DNA of 64,000 nucleotides, taken from assembly GCF_003019035.1 (NCBI RefSeq), contig NZ_CP027447.1, one strand, 5' to 3'. This stretch comes from Escherichia coli. Its GTDB lineage: Bacteria; Pseudomonadota; Gammaproteobacteria; Enterobacterales; Enterobacteriaceae. Shown here in pieces: positions 6,101 through 28,490 of this stretch. Each line of letters opens with the position of its first letter. The stretch's first letter is position 1. Both the position numbers and the translations under genes were made by a program. The notes below the pieces were generated by a model that was not told the origin of the DNA, made no database searches, and saw only the letters and a list, made by a program, of their open reading frames with translations.

Positions 6101-6868
6101 GTTAGACCCCCAGGCGATGATGTAACTGGAGTTATACCAGTCGGCAGATTCCGGTACGTCGGTTTGCTCGCCCCAGGTCATCGGCGAGGCGGGCGGCAGG
6201 TCGCAATACCAGTCGTAGAAGCTTAAACAGGTGCCACCTAACAGCGACAGATAACGTGTTCCGGCGGCGTAAGAAACCATCGACATCGCCGGGATCGGCG
6301 AGAAACCGGCAACGCGATCCGGGCCGTAAGTTTTGATGGTCCAGACGTTAGCAGCGGCAATCAGCTGGTTTAGCTCCTGCCAGTTGGAGCGGATAAAGCC
6401 GCCGCGTCCACGTACTTGTTTGTAGCTCAGGCACTTTTGCGGATCGTTCATAATTGATGCCCACGCCAGTACCGGATCGCTGTGTTGCTTGAGGGCTTCG
6501 CGCCACAGTTCAATCAGTCGTTTACGAATGAGCGGGTATTTCAGGCGGTTAGCGCTGTAGAGATACCAGGAGTAACTTGCGCCACGCGGGCAGCCGCGAG
6601 GTTCGTGATTTGGCAGGTCAGGGCGAGTGCGCGGGTAGTCGGTCTGTTGGATTTCCCAGGTCACCAGACCATTTTTAACGTAGATTTTCCAGCTACAGGA
6701 GCCTGTACAGTTAACACCGTGGGTGGAACGCACGATTTTGTCGAACTGCCAACGCTGGCGATAGCTGTCCTCCCAGTCGCGGTTGCTATGCATCACCTGT
6801 CCGTGACCATCGGCAAAGGTTTCGCCCTTTTGTTTGAAGTAGCGAAAGCGATCCAAAAGTTTACTCAT
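3128..6868 (-). CDS. narZ: Respiratory nitrate reductase Z alpha subunit (molybdopterin catalytic subunit)
   Basis: Long ORF 3128..6991; likely true start at ATG 6866-6868 (MSKLLDRFRYFKQKGETF) preceded by GGAG RBS, giving about 1246 aa. Confidence 0.9.
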   Translation of the reverse strand: MSKLLDRFRYFKQKGETFADGHGQVMHSNRDWEDSYRQRWQFDKIVRSTHGVNCTGSCSWKIYVKNGLVTWEIQQTDYPRTRPDLPNHEPRGCPRGASYSWYLYSANRLKYPLIRKRLIELWREALKQHSDPVLAWASIMNDPQKCLSYKQVRGRGGFIRSNWQELNQLIAAANVWTIKTYGPDRVAGFSPIPAMSMVSYAAGTRYLSLLGGTCLSFYDWYCDLPPASPMTWGEQTDVPESADWYNSSYIIAWGSNVPQTRTPDAHFFTEVRYKGTKTIAITPDYSEVAKLCDQWLAPKQGTDSALAMAMGHVILKEFHLDNPSDYFINYCRRYSDMPMLVMLEPRDDGSYVPGRMVRASDLVDGLGESNNPQWKTVAVNTAGELVVPNGSIGFRWGEKGKWNLESIAAGTENELSLTLLGQHDAVAGVAFPYFGGIENPHFRRVKHNPVLVRQLPVKNLTLADGNTCPVVSVYDLVLANYGLDRGLEDENSAKDYAEIKPYTPAWGEQITGVPRQYIETIAREFADTAHKTHGRSMIILGAGVNHWYHMDMNYRGMINMLIFCGCVGQSGGGWAHYVGQEKLRPQTGWLPLAFALDWNRPPRQMNSTSFFYNHSSQWRYEKVSAQELLSPLADASKYSGHLIDFNVRAERMGWLPSAPQLGRNPLGIKAEADKAGLSPTEFTAQALKSGDLRMACEQPDSGSNHPRNLFVWRSNLLGSSGKGHEYMQKYLLGTESGIQGQELGASDGIKPEEVEWQTAAIEGKLDLLVTLDFRMSSTCLFSDIVLPTATWYEKDDMNTSDMHPFIHPLSAAVDPAWESRSDWEIYKGIAKAFSQLCVGHLGKETDVVLQPLLHDSPAELSQPCEVLDWRKGECDLIPGKTAPNIVAVERDYPATYERFTSLGPLMDKLGNGGKGISWNTQDEIDFLGKLNYTKREGPAQGRPLIDTAIDASEVILALAPETNGHVAVKAWQALGEITGREHTHLALHKEDEKIRFRDIQAQPRKIISSPTWSGLESDHVSYNAGYTNVHELIPWRTLSGRQQLYQDHPWMRAFGESLVAYRPPIDTRSVSEMRQIPPNGFPEKALNFLTPHQKWGIHSTYSENLLMLTLSRGGPIVWISETDARELTIVDNDWVEVFNANGALTARAVVSQRVPPGMTMMYHAQERIMNIPGSEVTGMRGGIHNSVTRVCPKPTHMIGGYAQLAWGFNYYGTVGSNRDEFIMIRKMKNVNWLDDEGRDQVQEAKK

Positions 6869-6903
6869 GACATAACTCCTGCTCCAGGAATGAATTGGGA
6901 TCT

Positions 6904-6957
6904 GATGCCTTGTCGGACGCGACACGGTTGTAGCCTGATAAGACGTGTCAGGCATCG
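6904..6957. repeat. REP-like palindromic element in narU-narZ intergenic region
   Basis: Inverted repeat GCCTGA...TCAGGC nested in GATGCC...GGCATC; resembles enterobacterial REP units. Confidence 0.4.
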
Positions 6958-6962
6958 ATCTC

Positions 6963-8351
6963 TTATTTTTGGCTGAACTTCCGCCGACCATAAACCAGCC
7001 AGGTCAGTAGCACGCAAACGATGTAGAAGATTAAAAACACTTTCATCGCGCCCACCGGAGAGCCGGTCATATTGAGCGACATGCCAAACGCCTGCGGAAT
7101 AAAAAAGCCGCCCACTGCGCCAATGGCTGAGATAAAGCCCAGAGCGGCTGCCGTTTCGGTGACGGCTTCTCTTTGAGCTTGCTCATCACTACCGCCTTTC
7201 ATCTTCACCCGATAAATGGTTATCTGGCGAAAGATGACGGCGATCATCTGGAAAGTAGAACCACTTCCCAGACCCGCGGTCAGAAACAGCCCCATAAATA
7301 CGGCGTAAAATGCGATGAAATTACCGGAGCCTGTGCCCGGTAAGGTAAGGAACAGCAGGGCGCTGAAAATCGCCATAAAAATGAAGTTGATCAACGTCAC
7401 CCGCACGCCGCCGAATTTATCGGAAATAGCACCACCAACCGATCGCGCGATGGCACCGATAAATGGGCCAAAGAACGCCAGGCGCAGAATATTCACATCC
7501 GGGAACTGAGTTTTCGCCAGCATGGCAAAACCCGCAGAAAAACCGATAAACGAACCGAAGGTGGCAAGGTAAAGCAGGCTCAGCAGCCAGAGATGCAGGC
7601 GTTGTAACACTGGCAGCTGGTCGGCAATTGACGCGCGTGAACTGGCGATATCATTCATCCCTGACCAGGCGGCGATCGTGGCAATCGCCAGTAATGGCAC
7701 CCAAATCCATGCGGCATTCGCCAGCGACATCACCGAACCGTCGGCCTGCGGTACGCCATTGACGCCGAGAAAGGCAAATACGGGTACAAAAATGACCAGC
7801 GGTGCAACCAGCTGCATCACACTTACACCTAAGTTTCCTAATCCGCCATTAATCCCAAGTGCGCTCCCTTGTTTGGCTTTTGGGAAGAAGAAACTGATAT
7901 TGCCCATGCTCGAAGCAAAGTTCGCACCTGCAAAACCGCATAGCAAAGCGATAACGATAAATATCCCAAAAGGAGTATTCGGATTCTGCACGGCAATTCC
8001 GAGCCAGACGCAAGGAATAATCAGGATTGCAGTACTAAAAACCGTCCATCGGCGTCCACCGAATATAGGCACCATAAAGGAGTAGGGGACACGCAATAAT
8101 GCGCCAGAAACGGAGGGTAATGCGGTTAATAAAAAGAGTTGATCGGTAGTGAAATTAAAACCGATTTTATTGAGATTAACAGTAACTGCGCTAAATAGCA
8201 TCCAGACACAGAAGGCAAGAAGTAGACAACTGACTGATATCCAGAGGTTTCTTCGTGCAATATGTTTTCCTTTATTTTCCCAGAAGGCCGGATTTTCTGG
8301 TTTCCAGTCGCGTAAAAGATAACGACTATTTTTCTCATTTTGCAGTGCCAT
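6963..8351 (-). CDS. narU: Nitrate/nitrite transporter (MFS, NarK family)
   Basis: ORF 6963..8393; probable start at ATG 8349-8351 (MALQNEKNSRYLLRDW), about 462 aa; multi-pass membrane protein upstream of narZ. Confidence 0.85.
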   Translation of the reverse strand: MALQNEKNSRYLLRDWKPENPAFWENKGKHIARRNLWISVSCLLLAFCVWMLFSAVTVNLNKIGFNFTTDQLFLLTALPSVSGALLRVPYSFMVPIFGGRRWTVFSTAILIIPCVWLGIAVQNPNTPFGIFIVIALLCGFAGANFASSMGNISFFFPKAKQGSALGINGGLGNLGVSVMQLVAPLVIFVPVFAFLGVNGVPQADGSVMSLANAAWIWVPLLAIATIAAWSGMNDIASSRASIADQLPVLQRLHLWLLSLLYLATFGSFIGFSAGFAMLAKTQFPDVNILRLAFFGPFIGAIARSVGGAISDKFGGVRVTLINFIFMAIFSALLFLTLPGTGSGNFIAFYAVFMGLFLTAGLGSGSTFQMIAVIFRQITIYRVKMKGGSDEQAQREAVTETAAALGFISAIGAVGGFFIPQAFGMSLNMTGSPVGAMKVFLIFYIVCVLLTWLVYGRRKFSQK

Positions 8352-8660: not shown

Positions 8661-9917
8661 TCACTGAAAAGGCCATGAGCTGGAGGAAAACGATCTGTCC
8701 AGAAAGTCTATCGGTTCCTCTCTTATCGCCTCATTGTAATAATCGTTATTACAGTAAGTATTGTTTATTTCATCTAATGTCATATTTTTAGTTTTTATAT
8801 TCATCTGATTTACAACTTCTTCTGTTTTATAAGTGTGTATATTATATGGGGTATATGCTTCTTTAATAGTATAGTGAAACAATTCGTTATCCACATCTAC
8901 TCCGTCAGAGTGAACTTCAAATGCACCAGGCGAAAGAATTGCCAGGCCAGTATTAAGCTTAAGTGCTGGGGAAAATAAATTAAATAACATGAGCTGCATA
9001 GTAGGGCAATTGTTCTTCCCAGAAACATTTAAAAAATTTAAGTTTTTGCTCTGTTTTATTATGGGGAATAAAGTTCCAATATCGGATGTATTCTTAGTGT
9101 CAATGCGGGTTATTTTATTATTGTCCAGCCTTAAACTTTTGATAGATGAAAGATAAGTCAGGAAATGAAGGTTTATTTTTTCCAACTGATTGTTCGCAGC
9201 GTTTAATGTCTGAACATTGCAGAAGTTGCTAAAGAATATTTTAATTTCAGAAAGCAAGTTGTTGTTGATAAGTAACGTATTCAAGTTGGGGAATAAGGCA
9301 TTATGTAAACTTGTTAGTTTATTATGGGATAGATCCAGCAGTAAAAGTTCATCTTTATTTCCTGCCACAATATCAGTTAATTGATTGTGGCTGAGATTCA
9401 GGTACTGCAGCCTTTCGCAACATTCTAATTGCACAAACTCTAGTTGATTATGTGCCGCACTAAAATAAGTAATTGATGAAAGCCGATCTATATCAATATT
9501 TCTGAGAGAATTATTATTCATAGATATATGTGTAATGCTTACATTTCTACCTTGAGGCAAATTTATTGACTCAAGAGCATTACTATTCAGACTAAGCTTT
9601 ACGAGTCTATCGTAGGTGGTTGTATCAAAATGTGTGAGTTGGTTATTATCAAGATTGATAGAGGTGAAGTTTTGCAGCCCTGGTGGTTGGGTAGTTAAAT
9701 TAAGTCCTGATAAATCAATATCATTCTGTTTCGACAAAAAAGCACAATTTATCCTTTTAGCGGCTTCGTTTCGGCATTCCGGACGATGGATTTCACCTGT
9801 AAGTATGCGTTCTGCTTTCCATTGATTTAATTCGAGCATCCAGTTAAATTCATTTTTTTCTGGATGTTGCTGTATGGATTGTGGATTTATTTTATTAAAT
9901 ATTGAAGGGAATTTCAT
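8661..9917 (-). CDS. Leucine-rich repeat protein (YddK-like)
   Basis: 418-aa ORF with many LxxLxLxxNxL repeats (e.g. LQYLNLSHNQLTDI, LLLLDLSHNKLTSL); AT-rich coding sequence. Confidence 0.7.
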   Translation of the reverse strand: MKFPSIFNKINPQSIQQHPEKNEFNWMLELNQWKAERILTGEIHRPECRNEAAKRINCAFLSKQNDIDLSGLNLTTQPPGLQNFTSINLDNNQLTHFDTTTYDRLVKLSLNSNALESINLPQGRNVSITHISMNNNSLRNIDIDRLSSITYFSAAHNQLEFVQLECCERLQYLNLSHNQLTDIVAGNKDELLLLDLSHNKLTSLHNALFPNLNTLLINNNLLSEIKIFFSNFCNVQTLNAANNQLEKINLHFLTYLSSIKSLRLDNNKITRIDTKNTSDIGTLFPIIKQSKNLNFLNVSGKNNCPTMQLMLFNLFSPALKLNTGLAILSPGAFEVHSDGVDVDNELFHYTIKEAYTPYNIHTYKTEEVVNQMNIKTKNMTLDEINNTYCNNDYYNEAIREEPIDFLDRSFSSSSWPFQ

Positions 9918-9979
9918 AACTGCTCCGTAGTAATGCTTTATTTTAATGATTTATTACCCTTGATAAATCAGGATGTGTT

Positions 9980-11245
9980 TTATAACTCTGTTGTAAAGGA
10001 TTGGCTTAACCAATTATTGGATGTTGGACCAAAACCTAAGGAAGGTTTATCCTCATTATGAATATAATAACAGACGGGTGTGCCCGTTGGGTCCTTTAGC
10101 CCCGAGTGTGAGGGTAGAGAAGAGGAATTTGACTTATAGTCACCAACCCCGTACATGCGACGCATAGGCAGAATAGCTTTTAGTTCTGCGTCAGAAAATA
10201 TTGTTTCTTCTTCTATTAAGGCGTACTCTCTGGAATAATATTTTGATCTATAACGAATAGACATTGAGTCATTTTCTTTTATATGATTTCCTTCGGAATT
10301 CTCGCTTACTTCTACAAGATGTTCATCGCTGGTATCGATATTTGTGATTGCCAGGTTATAAGATAAATCAATGGTCACTTCATTAGTGTCATCAATTATA
10401 TTTCTTACTGCAGTCCAGTACTGCATTTGGGCAAGTGGATCATTGTTGATGCCGTTAACTAATACATGCCAAAGATGTTTTGATGATATTAATTGATCAA
10501 TGTCATCTGTTGGCAATAAATTGTTATTGCTTAAGTTTAAATATTCCAGTTTTGTAGTGGTTTTCGCGTTTAAATGTGCAATATGGTTGTCGTTTAAAGT
10601 GATTTTCTCCACTATGGGGTGATTGTGTAATATAAGGTCATTGATCATGTTGTGATGGGCACTTAACTCAATCAGAGATTCTTGCCGGGAGAGATCCAGC
10701 GATGCTAGTTTGTTATAATCAAGATTAAGAAATTTCAGTTTATAACTATCAGAAATATTAATTTTTGTCAGGTTGTTATTTTGCGCTTCCAGGTTAACCA
10801 ATGAAAGCTGATTTTTTAAATCCAAATTTTCCAGATTATTGTGATCAATATAAATATTTTCCAGTTTTGATTGATTTGGAAAGGTTATCGTTTTAATTTT
10901 ATTAAAGCTGAGGTTGATATTGACGAGGCTGGCATTGTCAGTAAAGTCAAGACAAGTGAGACAATTGTTTTCCAGATTTAACGTGTTAACTGTCGAGGGG
11001 ATAGGGGGTAACTCACTCAAATCAAGATATGACAAATCAAGAGATGCCATGTTCGAATTGTAAGCTTCTTTAATTCGCTCCACGGCAATTGCTCTTTCTT
11101 CACCATTATTAAGCGACTTATTACCCCATTGTGCCAGTCGTTCACAAAAATTGCTGGAGATGGTTTTTTTGTTAGGTAATGCGTTATTTAATTGATAACT
11201 GGCATTATTTTTTACACAAGCTGTATTAATATTGGTCATAATCAC
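9980..11245 (-). CDS. Leucine-rich repeat protein, paralogue of the preceding gene
   Basis: 421-aa ORF with repeated LxxLxLxxNxL units (LVNINLSFNKIKTI, LKFLNLDYNKLASLDLS); AT-rich. Confidence 0.7.
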   Translation of the reverse strand: MIMTNINTACVKNNASYQLNNALPNKKTISSNFCERLAQWGNKSLNNGEERAIAVERIKEAYNSNMASLDLSYLDLSELPPIPSTVNTLNLENNCLTCLDFTDNASLVNINLSFNKIKTITFPNQSKLENIYIDHNNLENLDLKNQLSLVNLEAQNNNLTKINISDSYKLKFLNLDYNKLASLDLSRQESLIELSAHHNMINDLILHNHPIVEKITLNDNHIAHLNAKTTTKLEYLNLSNNNLLPTDDIDQLISSKHLWHVLVNGINNDPLAQMQYWTAVRNIIDDTNEVTIDLSYNLAITNIDTSDEHLVEVSENSEGNHIKENDSMSIRYRSKYYSREYALIEEETIFSDAELKAILPMRRMYGVGDYKSNSSSLPSHSGLKDPTGTPVCYYIHNEDKPSLGFGPTSNNWLSQSFTTEL

Positions 11246-23180: not shown

Positions 23181-23236
23181 GCGTTGCCGGATGACGCGTC
23201 AGGCGCGTGATTGCCTGATGCGTTGTTAGCGTCTCT
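23181..23236. repeat. REP-like element between osmC and ddpF
   Basis: GCCGGATGACGCGTCAGGCGCG...GCCTGATGCG resembles REP consensus. Confidence 0.4.
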
Positions 23237-24161
23237 ACAGCGCCCGCCAGCACCGGATCTCACGTCCGTCCTCCCTTATTGCTAATGATTGCCGGACTTC
23301 ACACCCGTGGGTTGCCAGAGGGCAACGTTCACGGAAAAAACAGCCTTGTGGCAACGTGCGGTTTCCTGGTAGATCCGTTTTACGTAATGCCCATTCTTCC
23401 TCCAGCGGTTTATCAATGGCGGGGAGGGAATCCAGCAATAATCGGGTGTAGGGATGTGCCGGAGCTGTCAGCACCTGTTGCGCGTCTCCTAATTCCACAA
23501 TCTGTCCGAGATACATCACCGCCACCCGATCGCTCATATGACGTATCACCGAGACATTGTGTGAAATCAGCACATAAGTCAGCCCGCGATTTTCCTGTAG
23601 CGTTACCAGTAAATTGAGGATCTGCGCCTGCACGGAGATATCCAGCGCCGAGGTTGGTTCATCAAGCACAATCACGTCAGGCTGCGAAGAGAGTGCTCTG
23701 GCAATGGCGATACGTTGCCGCTGCCCGCCTGAGAACGCATGGGGCAAGCGGTCGAGATACTCCGGACGAATACCCACCTGCACAGCCAGCTCCTCTGCCA
23801 ACGCTCGCCGCTGTTGTTCACTACTACGCTTAGCAATCCAGAGCGGTTCCGTGATGATGCGCCACACCGGTAAGCGCGGATTAAGCGAAGAGAGCGGGTC
23901 CTGAAACACCATCTGCATAATGCGTTGTGATCCTGAACGGATGTACTGCCCGTGGCTCGGTTGCAGCATACCCATTAAAAGCTGTGCGAGGGTGCTTTTG
24001 CCGCAACCTGACTCACCGACGATCCCTAAGGTTTCACCACGACGGATCTGTAAATCAATACCATTGATGGCATGAACATGTTCCGTAGTTTTACCAAGCC
24101 AGTTTTTTCGGGCCGGGAAATTGATATGGACGTCGCGTAACGTTAATAACGTGTCAGACAC
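23235..24161 (-). CDS. ddpF: D,D-dipeptide ABC transporter ATP-binding protein
   Basis: ORF 23235..24215; probable GTG start at 24159-24161 (VSDTLLTLRDVHINF) with AGGAGG RBS, overlapping ddpD stop; Walker A GESGCGKST. Confidence 0.85.
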   Translation of the reverse strand: MSDTLLTLRDVHINFPARKNWLGKTTEHVHAINGIDLQIRRGETLGIVGESGCGKSTLAQLLMGMLQPSHGQYIRSGSQRIMQMVFQDPLSSLNPRLPVWRIITEPLWIAKRSSEQQRRALAEELAVQVGIRPEYLDRLPHAFSGGQRQRIAIARALSSQPDVIVLDEPTSALDISVQAQILNLLVTLQENRGLTYVLISHNVSVIRHMSDRVAVMYLGQIVELGDAQQVLTAPAHPYTRLLLDSLPAIDKPLEEEWALRKTDLPGNRTLPQGCFFRERCPLATHGCEVRQSLAIREDGREIRCWRAL

Positions 24162-28310: not shown

Positions 28311-28490
28311 TGTATTGATTCACTTGAAGTACGAAAAAAAACCGGGAGGACATTGGATTATTCGGGATCTGATGGGATTAGATTTGGTGGGGCTTGCAAG
28401 CCTGTAGCGCAAATTTTAGTCGTTAATCAATGAAACGCGAAAGATAGTAAAAAATTGCTTTTGTTTCATTGAAAATACGAAAAACAAAAA
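28311..28490 (+). repeat. Prophage left end (attL) with transposase-binding sites L1-L3
   Basis: Terminal TG; end-binding repeats TGATTCACTTGAAGTACGAAAA (28317-28338), TGAAACGCGAAAGATAG (28431-28447), TTGTTTCATTGAAAATACGAAAAAC (28461-28485). Confidence 0.75.

Follow-up and report, generated by a model that had tools for sequence, protein, structure and literature searches.

Putative remnants of REP/BIME elements in the narU-narZ and osmC/ddpF spacers of an Escherichia coli genome

Two GC-rich elements in the narU-narZ and osmC/ddpF spacers

The window analysed here, a stretch of 64,000 nt (64 kb) of E. coli DNA, contains two spacers with REP-like sequences. According to the open reading frames and the RefSeq annotation, the stop codon of narU is at 6963-6965 and narZ starts at 6868, both on the minus strand. 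The intercistronic spacer between them is 94 nt long (6869-6962) and appears to hold, on the mRNA (minus) strand, a decayed BIME followed by the ribosome-binding region of narZ. The region 6500-7400, which comprises parts of narU and narZ, had an identity of 100% with strain CFSAN061771 and of 96.7% with K-12 derivatives. The second spacer, of 55 nt (23180-23234), lies between the stop of osmC (23177-23179, plus strand) and the stop codon of ddpF (23235-23237, minus strand), two convergent genes.

The original prediction had described GC-rich, REP-like palindromes at 6904-6957 and 23181-23236. The gene names and coordinates agreed with the open reading frames and the annotation: the former interval is inside the narU-narZ spacer, and the latter corresponds to the osmC/ddpF spacer. 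The GC content was 57% in the narU-narZ element and 61% in the osmC element versus 51% in the window, as described. The positions assigned to them, one internal to an operon and one terminal, were also appropriate, since narUZYWV acts as a single operon whose genes are regulated together by one promoter region upstream of them (PMC11417348), and osmC and ddpF converge.

Both loci are the best REP matches in the window

REP features, including those of malE-malF, are absent from the copy of the RefSeq annotation of K-12 (NC_000913.3) used here, and we therefore built our own reference. A strict regular expression recovered too few REPs, and in its stead an nhmmer profile was iterated over 157 kb of K-12, by which 38 REPs were collected. 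The REPs of malE-malF were present in this K-12 sample. As a control, in a K-12 region outside the training set the profile detected four full REPs, which scored 27-36 bits.

When both strands of the 64 kb were searched, the best match to the profile was 23234-23210 on the minus strand (11.0 bits, E = 0.03), and the second best was 6933-6948 on the plus strand (10.2 bits, E = 0.05). The two loci noted for their resemblance to REPs are thus the top two REP matches in the window. Both matches are partial, with 10-11 bits compared with 14-40 bits for intact REPs, and scores of this size taken alone are marginal (E = 0.03-0.05).

The k-mers of the two loci were counted in the same K-12 sequence. 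The 13-mer GCCTGATAAGACG at 6933-6945 has eight copies in the 157 kb, all eight inside full REPs, and one copy in the window. The 11-mer TGCCTGATGCG at 23212-23222 has 18 copies, 15 of them inside full REPs, and again one in the window, where about 0.03 copies are expected by chance. The alignment with REP/BIME consensus sequences that had been proposed as a check gave a positive result. In the gapped Z2 alignment, narU-narZ was the best match in the window with a score of 18.9, against a background of 6.7 +/- 1.4 and a next unrelated match of 15.5. In the gapped alignment with the Y/Z1/Z2 consensus, the osmC locus ranked within the best 0.5% of segments, and about 17 other places reached its score.

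No complete REP was found anywhere in the 64-kb window by pattern and HMM search. The REP tail consensus CTTATCMGGCCTAC had no match in the window with two mismatches or fewer, because the remnants differ from it by indels. The Rfam search gave no family at either locus, and neither RepRanger nor Dar and Sorek give data on these genes in their supplements. Similarity to the Y/Z1/Z2 consensus was above chance at both loci in the HMM and the k-mers, and at narU-narZ also in the gapped score. Judged by these sequence comparisons, the REP resemblance of both loci is clearly beyond chance.

Both elements lack the full REP palindrome

REPs are defined by a conserved GTAG tetranucleotide immediately 5ʹ of a palindrome (PMC8266576). 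GTAG was found at 6930-6933 on the plus strand and at 23238-23235 on the minus strand, where it overlaps the ddpF stop codon. Both elements are extragenic: the remnant of the first REP starts 8 nt past the narU stop codon, and the first REP-like segment at osmC starts 5 nt past the osmC stop codon. The full imperfect palindrome of about 30-37 nt with a mismatch bulge was present at neither locus. At narU-narZ about 11 nt are missing and the pairing left is GCCTGA/TCAGGC (6 bp), and at osmC the tail arm is short by about 8 nt.

The BIME arrangement was recognizable at both loci. At narU-narZ the linker lies between remnants of both REPs, and the sequences of three sister lineages allow the full pair to be rebuilt; at osmC the REP heads face each other across GCGTGAT, as in a Citrobacter BIME, and the outer halves are missing. 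Intact REPs lie between identical flanks at narU-narZ in E. albertii, E69, and E. whittamii, and the osmC orthologous sites of outgroups have other hairpins instead of intact REPs. Neither locus has the form of an intrinsic terminator, as the tails UGUUAGCGUCU and AGAUCCCAAUU contain no U-run. The description as REP units needs the qualification that both loci are truncated remnants and not canonical elements.

RAYT (TnpA_REP) binds and cleaves single-stranded REPs, an activity that requires GTAG and a bulged stem (PMC8266576). Neither remnant would presumably still be a RAYT substrate, because the bulged imperfect palindrome has been lost. The K-12 rayT gene with flanking REPs was observed in our reference sequences (L004 17458-18335).

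Structure of the narU-narZ remnant

The remnant of REP no. 1, GTAG-CCTGATAAGACGtGTCAGGCA, lies at 6930-6954 on the plus strand and was identified by the HMM, the Z2 alignment, and the 13-mer. On the mRNA strand it is inverted (iREP), and reads TGCCTGACA^CGTCTTATCAGG^CTAC in the narU-to-narZ direction. Compared with a Z2-type REP, one G is missing, one base is substituted, and an internal deletion of about 11 nt takes out the loop and most of the 3ʹ arm.

The BIME linker AACCGTGTC (6921-6929, minus strand) stands between the two REP tails. It is kept as AAC(C/G)GTGTCGC in the window, K-12, E. whittamii, and E. albertii, and only its GTGTCGC end is kept in E69. The terminal remnant of REP no. 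2 (Y-type), GCGTCCGACA, follows at 6911-6920 on the minus strand. About 31 nt of this REP are gone, including GTAG and the 5ʹ arm, by a deletion between CGC microhomologies that is common to the window, K-12, and E. whittamii. The sequence TGTCGGAyGCGAC on the plus strand was also considered as a REP head; it was rejected, as the alignment shows it to be the junction of the 31-nt deletion.

The inverted-repeat search reported nothing at narU-narZ. The palindrome predicted here is weak as a DNA inverted repeat, with 7 perfect bases (GATGCCT/AGGCATC), which on alignment are the head of the first REP and the flank of the second. The minimum free energy fold of the RNA had an 11-bp outer stem with a bulge, formed by the 5ʹ arm GATCGATGCCT (6950-6960) and the 3ʹ arm AGGCATCAGATC (6899-6910) of the minus strand; this stem corresponds to the palindrome of the original prediction. 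Its energy was -27.2 kcal/mol (z = -1.84), and 10 of 200 shuffles were as stable. The 5ʹ arm is identical across the five aligned Escherichia lineages; the outer stem is invariant, and covariation is therefore uninformative. The scan for intrinsic terminators found none at narU-narZ.

Sister lineages and decay history of the narU-narZ spacer

A narZ-specific codon pattern, applied to one genome per species, gave 41 loci, and the narU-narZ spacer was extracted from 40 of them. Of these 40 spacers, all from other genome records, 11 contain at least one full REP above 20 bits, among them those of E. albertii, E. whittamii, and E69. When read from narU to narZ, the spacers of Escherichia have identical flanks and different interiors. 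E. whittamii has a full inverted REP (25.2 bits) directly after GAGATCGA, at the position of REP no. 1. A full Y-type REP with the sequence GTAGGTCGGATAAGGC...GCCGCATC(C/T)GACA lies just before AGGCATCAGATCCC in E. albertii (38.5 bits) and in 'E. coli' E69 (32.6 bits).

As a separate observation, the full REP of E. whittamii is an almost perfect palindrome (GCCTGGTAAGACG...CGTCTTATCAGGC), in which the mismatch bulge usual in E. coli is absent. The two arms look as though one were a copy of the other.

The K-12 spacer is 81 nt long and its remnant scores 9.6 bits with the REP profile. It differs from the window by a 13-nt indel, and the window strain carries the longer allele, with 13 more REP-derived bases. 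K-12 retains other bases of the first REP (TGCCTGATG^TAC), suggesting that the two E. coli alleles arose by independent deletions from a fuller ancestor. When the restored REP no. 1 and the E69 spacer were used as queries against 5,426 complete E. coli genomes, no intact REP was found at narU-narZ, and the best E. coli match was the window-type allele. About 1,867 records carried the window-type allele (106-nt type) and 3,552 the K-12-type allele (93-nt type), which corresponds to about one third and about two thirds of complete E. coli.

Several Citrobacter species have full BIMEs in the narU-narZ spacer in the opposite order (REP, then inverted REP), which on sequence would be an independent gain. 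In other genera, the spacers are 33-69 nt long and consist of the ribosome-binding region only. Because of these reversed BIMEs in Citrobacter and the REP-less spacers elsewhere, the site appears to have gained and lost REPs repeatedly.

These comparisons decide the origin of the narU-narZ element. They outline an ancestral tail-to-tail BIME of two REPs in Escherichia, composed of an inverted Z-type REP, the linker AACCGTGTCGC.TCC, and a Y-type REP, of which lineages would have lost different parts by small deletions. E. coli would have lost about 31 nt of the second REP, and the first REP would then have undergone two alternative internal deletions, one producing the window allele with its 94-nt spacer and the other the K-12 allele with 81 nt. 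We infer this order of deletions from the aligned spacers. What is left in the window is GTAG, one REP arm, a 6-bp mini-stem, and the outer 11-bp stem.

Two spacers from metagenome-assembled genomes (MAGs) were unusual in their taxonomic assignment. A MAG named 'Bacillota bacterium' had exactly the K-12 allele, and the second contig of a Citrobacter MAG had the window allele with one difference. Both are probably due to E. coli contamination or mis-binning.

Structure of the osmC/ddpF element

The first REP-like segment of the osmC/ddpF spacer, TGCCGGATGACGCGTCAGGCG, lies at 23185-23205 on the plus strand and overlaps a weak HMM match (4.3 bits, 23183-23194). Its first part, GCCGGATGA.GCGTCA, is also found in the osmC hairpin of E. 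marmotae, and its last 12 nt are the 5ʹ arm of the E. coli osmC hairpin. It is followed by the hairpin loop CGTGAT (23206-23211, plus strand), which is equivalent to the head-to-head linker of a BIME. The 16-mer GCGTGATTGCCTGATG, which includes this linker, is shared with a BIME of Citrobacter amalonaticus.

The second segment is an inverted REP, TGCCTGATGCGTTGTTAGCGTCT^CTAC (23212-23238, plus strand), found by pattern match, HMM, and k-mer. It has the exact 11-mer of the REP head and the CTAC tail, and about 8 nt of the tail arm (TATCAGGC) are missing. The CTA of the tail is the ddpF stop codon on the minus strand. The best matches of this segment elsewhere are REP heads with linkers.

Together the segments form a stem-loop 3ʹ of osmC (23194-23223, plus strand), with a 12-bp stem (23194-23205/23212-23223) and a 6-nt loop. 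It begins 15 nt past the osmC stop codon and has no U-run behind it. Here the predicted palindrome was confirmed, with inverted repeat arms of 11 nt that are 91% complementary. The plus strand folded with -31.4 kcal/mol (z = -2.23, 7 of 200 shuffles as stable), and the minus strand with -26.2 kcal/mol. The predicted folding z-scores at both loci are modest, and folding alone is within chance. The terminator scan found none at the osmC locus, and no promoter-like site was found nearby.

With a synthetic restored-REP query, no intact REP allele was found at osmC/ddpF in E. coli; the query recovered only an allele with a 17-bp tandem duplication. This duplication (GTTAGCATCTCTACAGC), over the ddpF stop codon and the REP tail, was seen in DETEC-P351 (L048 447-530) and in one further record (L057). 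A metagenome scan for the end of ddpF joined to an intact REP gave one contig, which was dismissed as unrelated GC-rich sequence.

Variation and possible role of the osmC hairpin

Variants of the hairpin within E. coli were examined. In the Nissle 1917 lineage (89 records), a G.U pair of the stem is changed to C-G by a double substitution, a compensatory change. A second E. coli variant (L061) creates another G.U pair. The G.U pairs of the window and of this variant can pair only in RNA of the plus strand, that is, in osmC mRNA. About one quarter of E. coli genomes, for example Nissle 1917, have dosP and not ddpF after osmC. In such dosP-type genomes, homology to the window stops exactly at 23223/23224 (2694/2695 in the Nissle 1917 record, L049). 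This is the 3ʹ end of the hairpin, and the REP-like element thus marks the edge of a variable segment.

For comparison with outgroups, we located the contigs that encode the OsmC variants of E. marmotae, C. amalonaticus, and C. gillenii. All three have a stable stem-loop without U-run at 9-15 nt past the osmC stop codon, each with its own sequence: GCCGGATGA-TGCG-TCATCCGGC in E. marmotae, and GCCCGGT...ACCGGGC and GCCGGATGCG-AGAG-CGCATCCGGC in the others. Conservation of structure and position with turnover of sequence is as expected of a hairpin that protects the 3ʹ end of a gene (cf. PMC6061677). The osmC mRNA is about 500 nt long, contains a REP, and is degraded in a way that depends on RNase E and the degradosome (PMC10100675).

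These results point to the osmC element as a protective 3ʹ hairpin of osmC mRNA. The spacer would combine sequences of REP heads with a linker of BIME type and a shortened tail, and the 12-bp stem-loop without U-run would mark the 3ʹ end of steady-state osmC mRNA and protect it against PNPase and RNase II. The stem-loop may also punctuate convergent ddpF transcription, though the minus strand folds less well. The suggested role in mRNA stability or punctuation has indirect support at this locus.

The element might instead be a lineage-specific form of an old stem-loop at the end of osmC, a terminator or stabilizer, with an incidental likeness to REP heads. We consider this unlikely, although it deserves some weight. 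The hairpins of E. marmotae, C. gillenii, and C. amalonaticus are simple and have neither GTAG nor a REP-type bulge, GCCGGATGA.GCGTCA occurs in both E. marmotae and E. coli, and the gapped consensus score of the locus is unremarkable. However, the 11-mer TGCCTGATGCG is almost exclusive to REPs in K-12 (15/18), the locus is the best REP HMM match in the window, and CTAC stands where the end of a REP tail is expected. In addition, the 16-mer with the BIME linker is shared with the Citrobacter BIME, and the element is annotated as REP122 (PMC10100675). The two views can be reconciled in part if the gene-end hairpin took up a REP fragment. Since the outgroup hairpins lack GTAG, part of the element may be an old gene-end hairpin and not a transposed REP.

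Possible functions of the narU-narZ remnant

The narU-narZ remnant is probably a near-neutral, mostly vestigial relic, because two deletion alleles coexist in E. coli and other genera need no such sequence. The remnant RNA in the narUZYWV transcript may still fold (-27 kcal/mol), and at most it would slightly slow 3ʹ-to-5ʹ exonucleases or RNA polymerase, like intact intercistronic REPs. For the suggested role in mRNA stability or punctuation, vestigial status is at least as likely at this locus.

Another explanation is that the remnant is a selected intercistronic RNA element that sets the narU:narZ ratio by processing, attenuation, or stabilization of the narU segment. The two flanks that build the outer stem, and also the stretch reaching to the ribosome-binding site, are near-identical in the window, K-12, E. 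albertii, E. whittamii, and E69, whereas the interior varies. Intact REPs have such a role between malE and malF. REP325 is likewise a terminator and stabilizer inside the operon yjdM-yjdN (bioRxiv preprint). Against this, both deletion alleles are frequent in E. coli, spacers of 33-69 nt with the ribosome-binding region only suffice in other genera, the fold z-score is only -1.84, and covariation is absent. We regard a selected RNA element as improbable on this balance. A more specific form of it, in which the BIME was recruited so that the invariant outer stem (6950-6960/6899-6910) became a selected processing or attenuation site, narU was uncoupled from narZYWV, and the alleles give different narU:narZ ratios, seems more doubtful still.

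The remnant could also act as DNA, either by providing narZ with an internal promoter or operator, or as a BIME bound by a protein such as IHF or gyrase. Regulation of narZYWV has been discussed as separate (RpoS-dependent), and some BIMEs bind IHF or gyrase. However, no sigma-70-like promoter was found in 6600-7300 on either strand, the linker is short, unlike that of the long IHF-binding type, and the REPs are truncated. A mutation upstream of narU also raises all five genes together (PMC11417348). A role at the DNA level is thus very improbable. Finally, the idea that both palindromes are chance GC-rich inverted repeats unrelated to REPs, which would fit the fold stability within reach of the shuffles (10/200 and 7/200) and the empty inverted-repeat search at narU-narZ, is refuted by the top two REP-HMM matches, the REP-exclusive k-mers, and the intact REPs at the orthologous site.

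Relation to known REP elements

We consider it very probable that both loci truly belong to the E. coli REP/BIME family, though in degenerate form, with a decayed-BIME relic at narU-narZ and a 3ʹ hairpin made of REP pieces at osmC. The likeness to the E. coli REP/BIME family (Y, Z1, Z2; group 2, RAYT/TnpA_REP) includes GTAG, the arm sequences (GCCTGATAAGACG; TGCCTGATGCG/CGCATCAGGCA), the extragenic position just past stop codons, the arrangement of a REP and an inverted REP across a short linker, and presence or absence that varies among strains and species. Both window copies differ from the family in being truncated, with loss of the bulged palindrome and scores of 10-11 versus 14-40 bits.

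Within operons as well as between convergent genes, REPs are known to block exonucleases and to terminate transcription in part (PMC6061677; bioRxiv preprint). Stem-loops without U-run define and protect the 3ʹ ends of Rho-dependent mRNAs, and 24% of them are annotated REPs (Dar and Sorek 2018, PMC6061677). The osmC hairpin resembles these stem-loops in being GC-rich, stable, directly 3ʹ of the gene, and without a U-run; theirs map to the 3ʹ ends of Rho-dependent mRNAs, whereas the osmC hairpin is known from sequence and a predicted fold. The narU-narZ remnant resembles the REPs of malE-malF and REP325 (yjdM-yjdN) in lying between co-transcribed genes, a few bases past the upstream stop codon. 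Those are intact multi-copy hairpins with measured effects, in contrast to the predicted 6-bp remnant stem and outer stem of narU-narZ.

The REP family is already well known, and the osmC element is already numbered in the K-12 annotation. In K-12, osmC is listed with REP122, consisting of 1 REP (PMC10100675), and the K-12 osmC/ddpF spacer differs from that of the window at 3 positions only. REP118 is located at nhoA/yddE and REP120 at fdnI/yddM (supplement of bioRxiv 10.64898/2026.03.23.713779). In the K-12 interval between REP118 and REP120, the only match to the REP HMM above 5 bits was the narU-narZ remnant (9.6 bits). By this elimination, REP119 is probably the narU-narZ element.

No other repeats of E. 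coli are as abundant or have been known for as long as REPs, and to find them here is ordinary and matters little. The narU-narZ spacer is a clear small case of REP turnover, in which one ancestral BIME decayed differently in each Escherichia lineage, and the osmC hairpin illustrates how pieces of REPs may serve as a stem-loop at the end of a gene. Annotation pipelines will miss truncated REPs of this kind, because their scores are below the usual detection thresholds.

Other features of the window

The fdnI-yddM spacer also differs between K-12 and the window. In K-12 (L001 17069-17349), it contains two BIMEs with four full REPs of 27-36 bits in a 178-bp tandem duplication, which also copies the fdnI terminator hairpin. 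These BIMEs are REP120 and probably REP121. The corresponding position of the window (18493-18526) is empty of REPs and has one terminator hairpin. The only Rfam family that reached the threshold in the window was SECIS_3 (84.3 bits), in fdnG at 14462-14520 on the plus strand.

Upstream of narU, the yddJ/yddK/yddL region (9719-12226) aligned only partially with K-12, with a gap between megablast blocks. At this side of narU, CFSAN061771 has a leucine-rich-repeat gene of a different size. Collinearity with both CFSAN061771 and K-12 ends at 28313, inside ddpA, and 28314-64000 matches Mu-like transposable prophages, with a transposase, an AAA ATPase, Gam, gp16, and Mu-Gp12. A Mu-like prophage appears to interrupt ddpA, and this strain would then have an inactive ddp operon.
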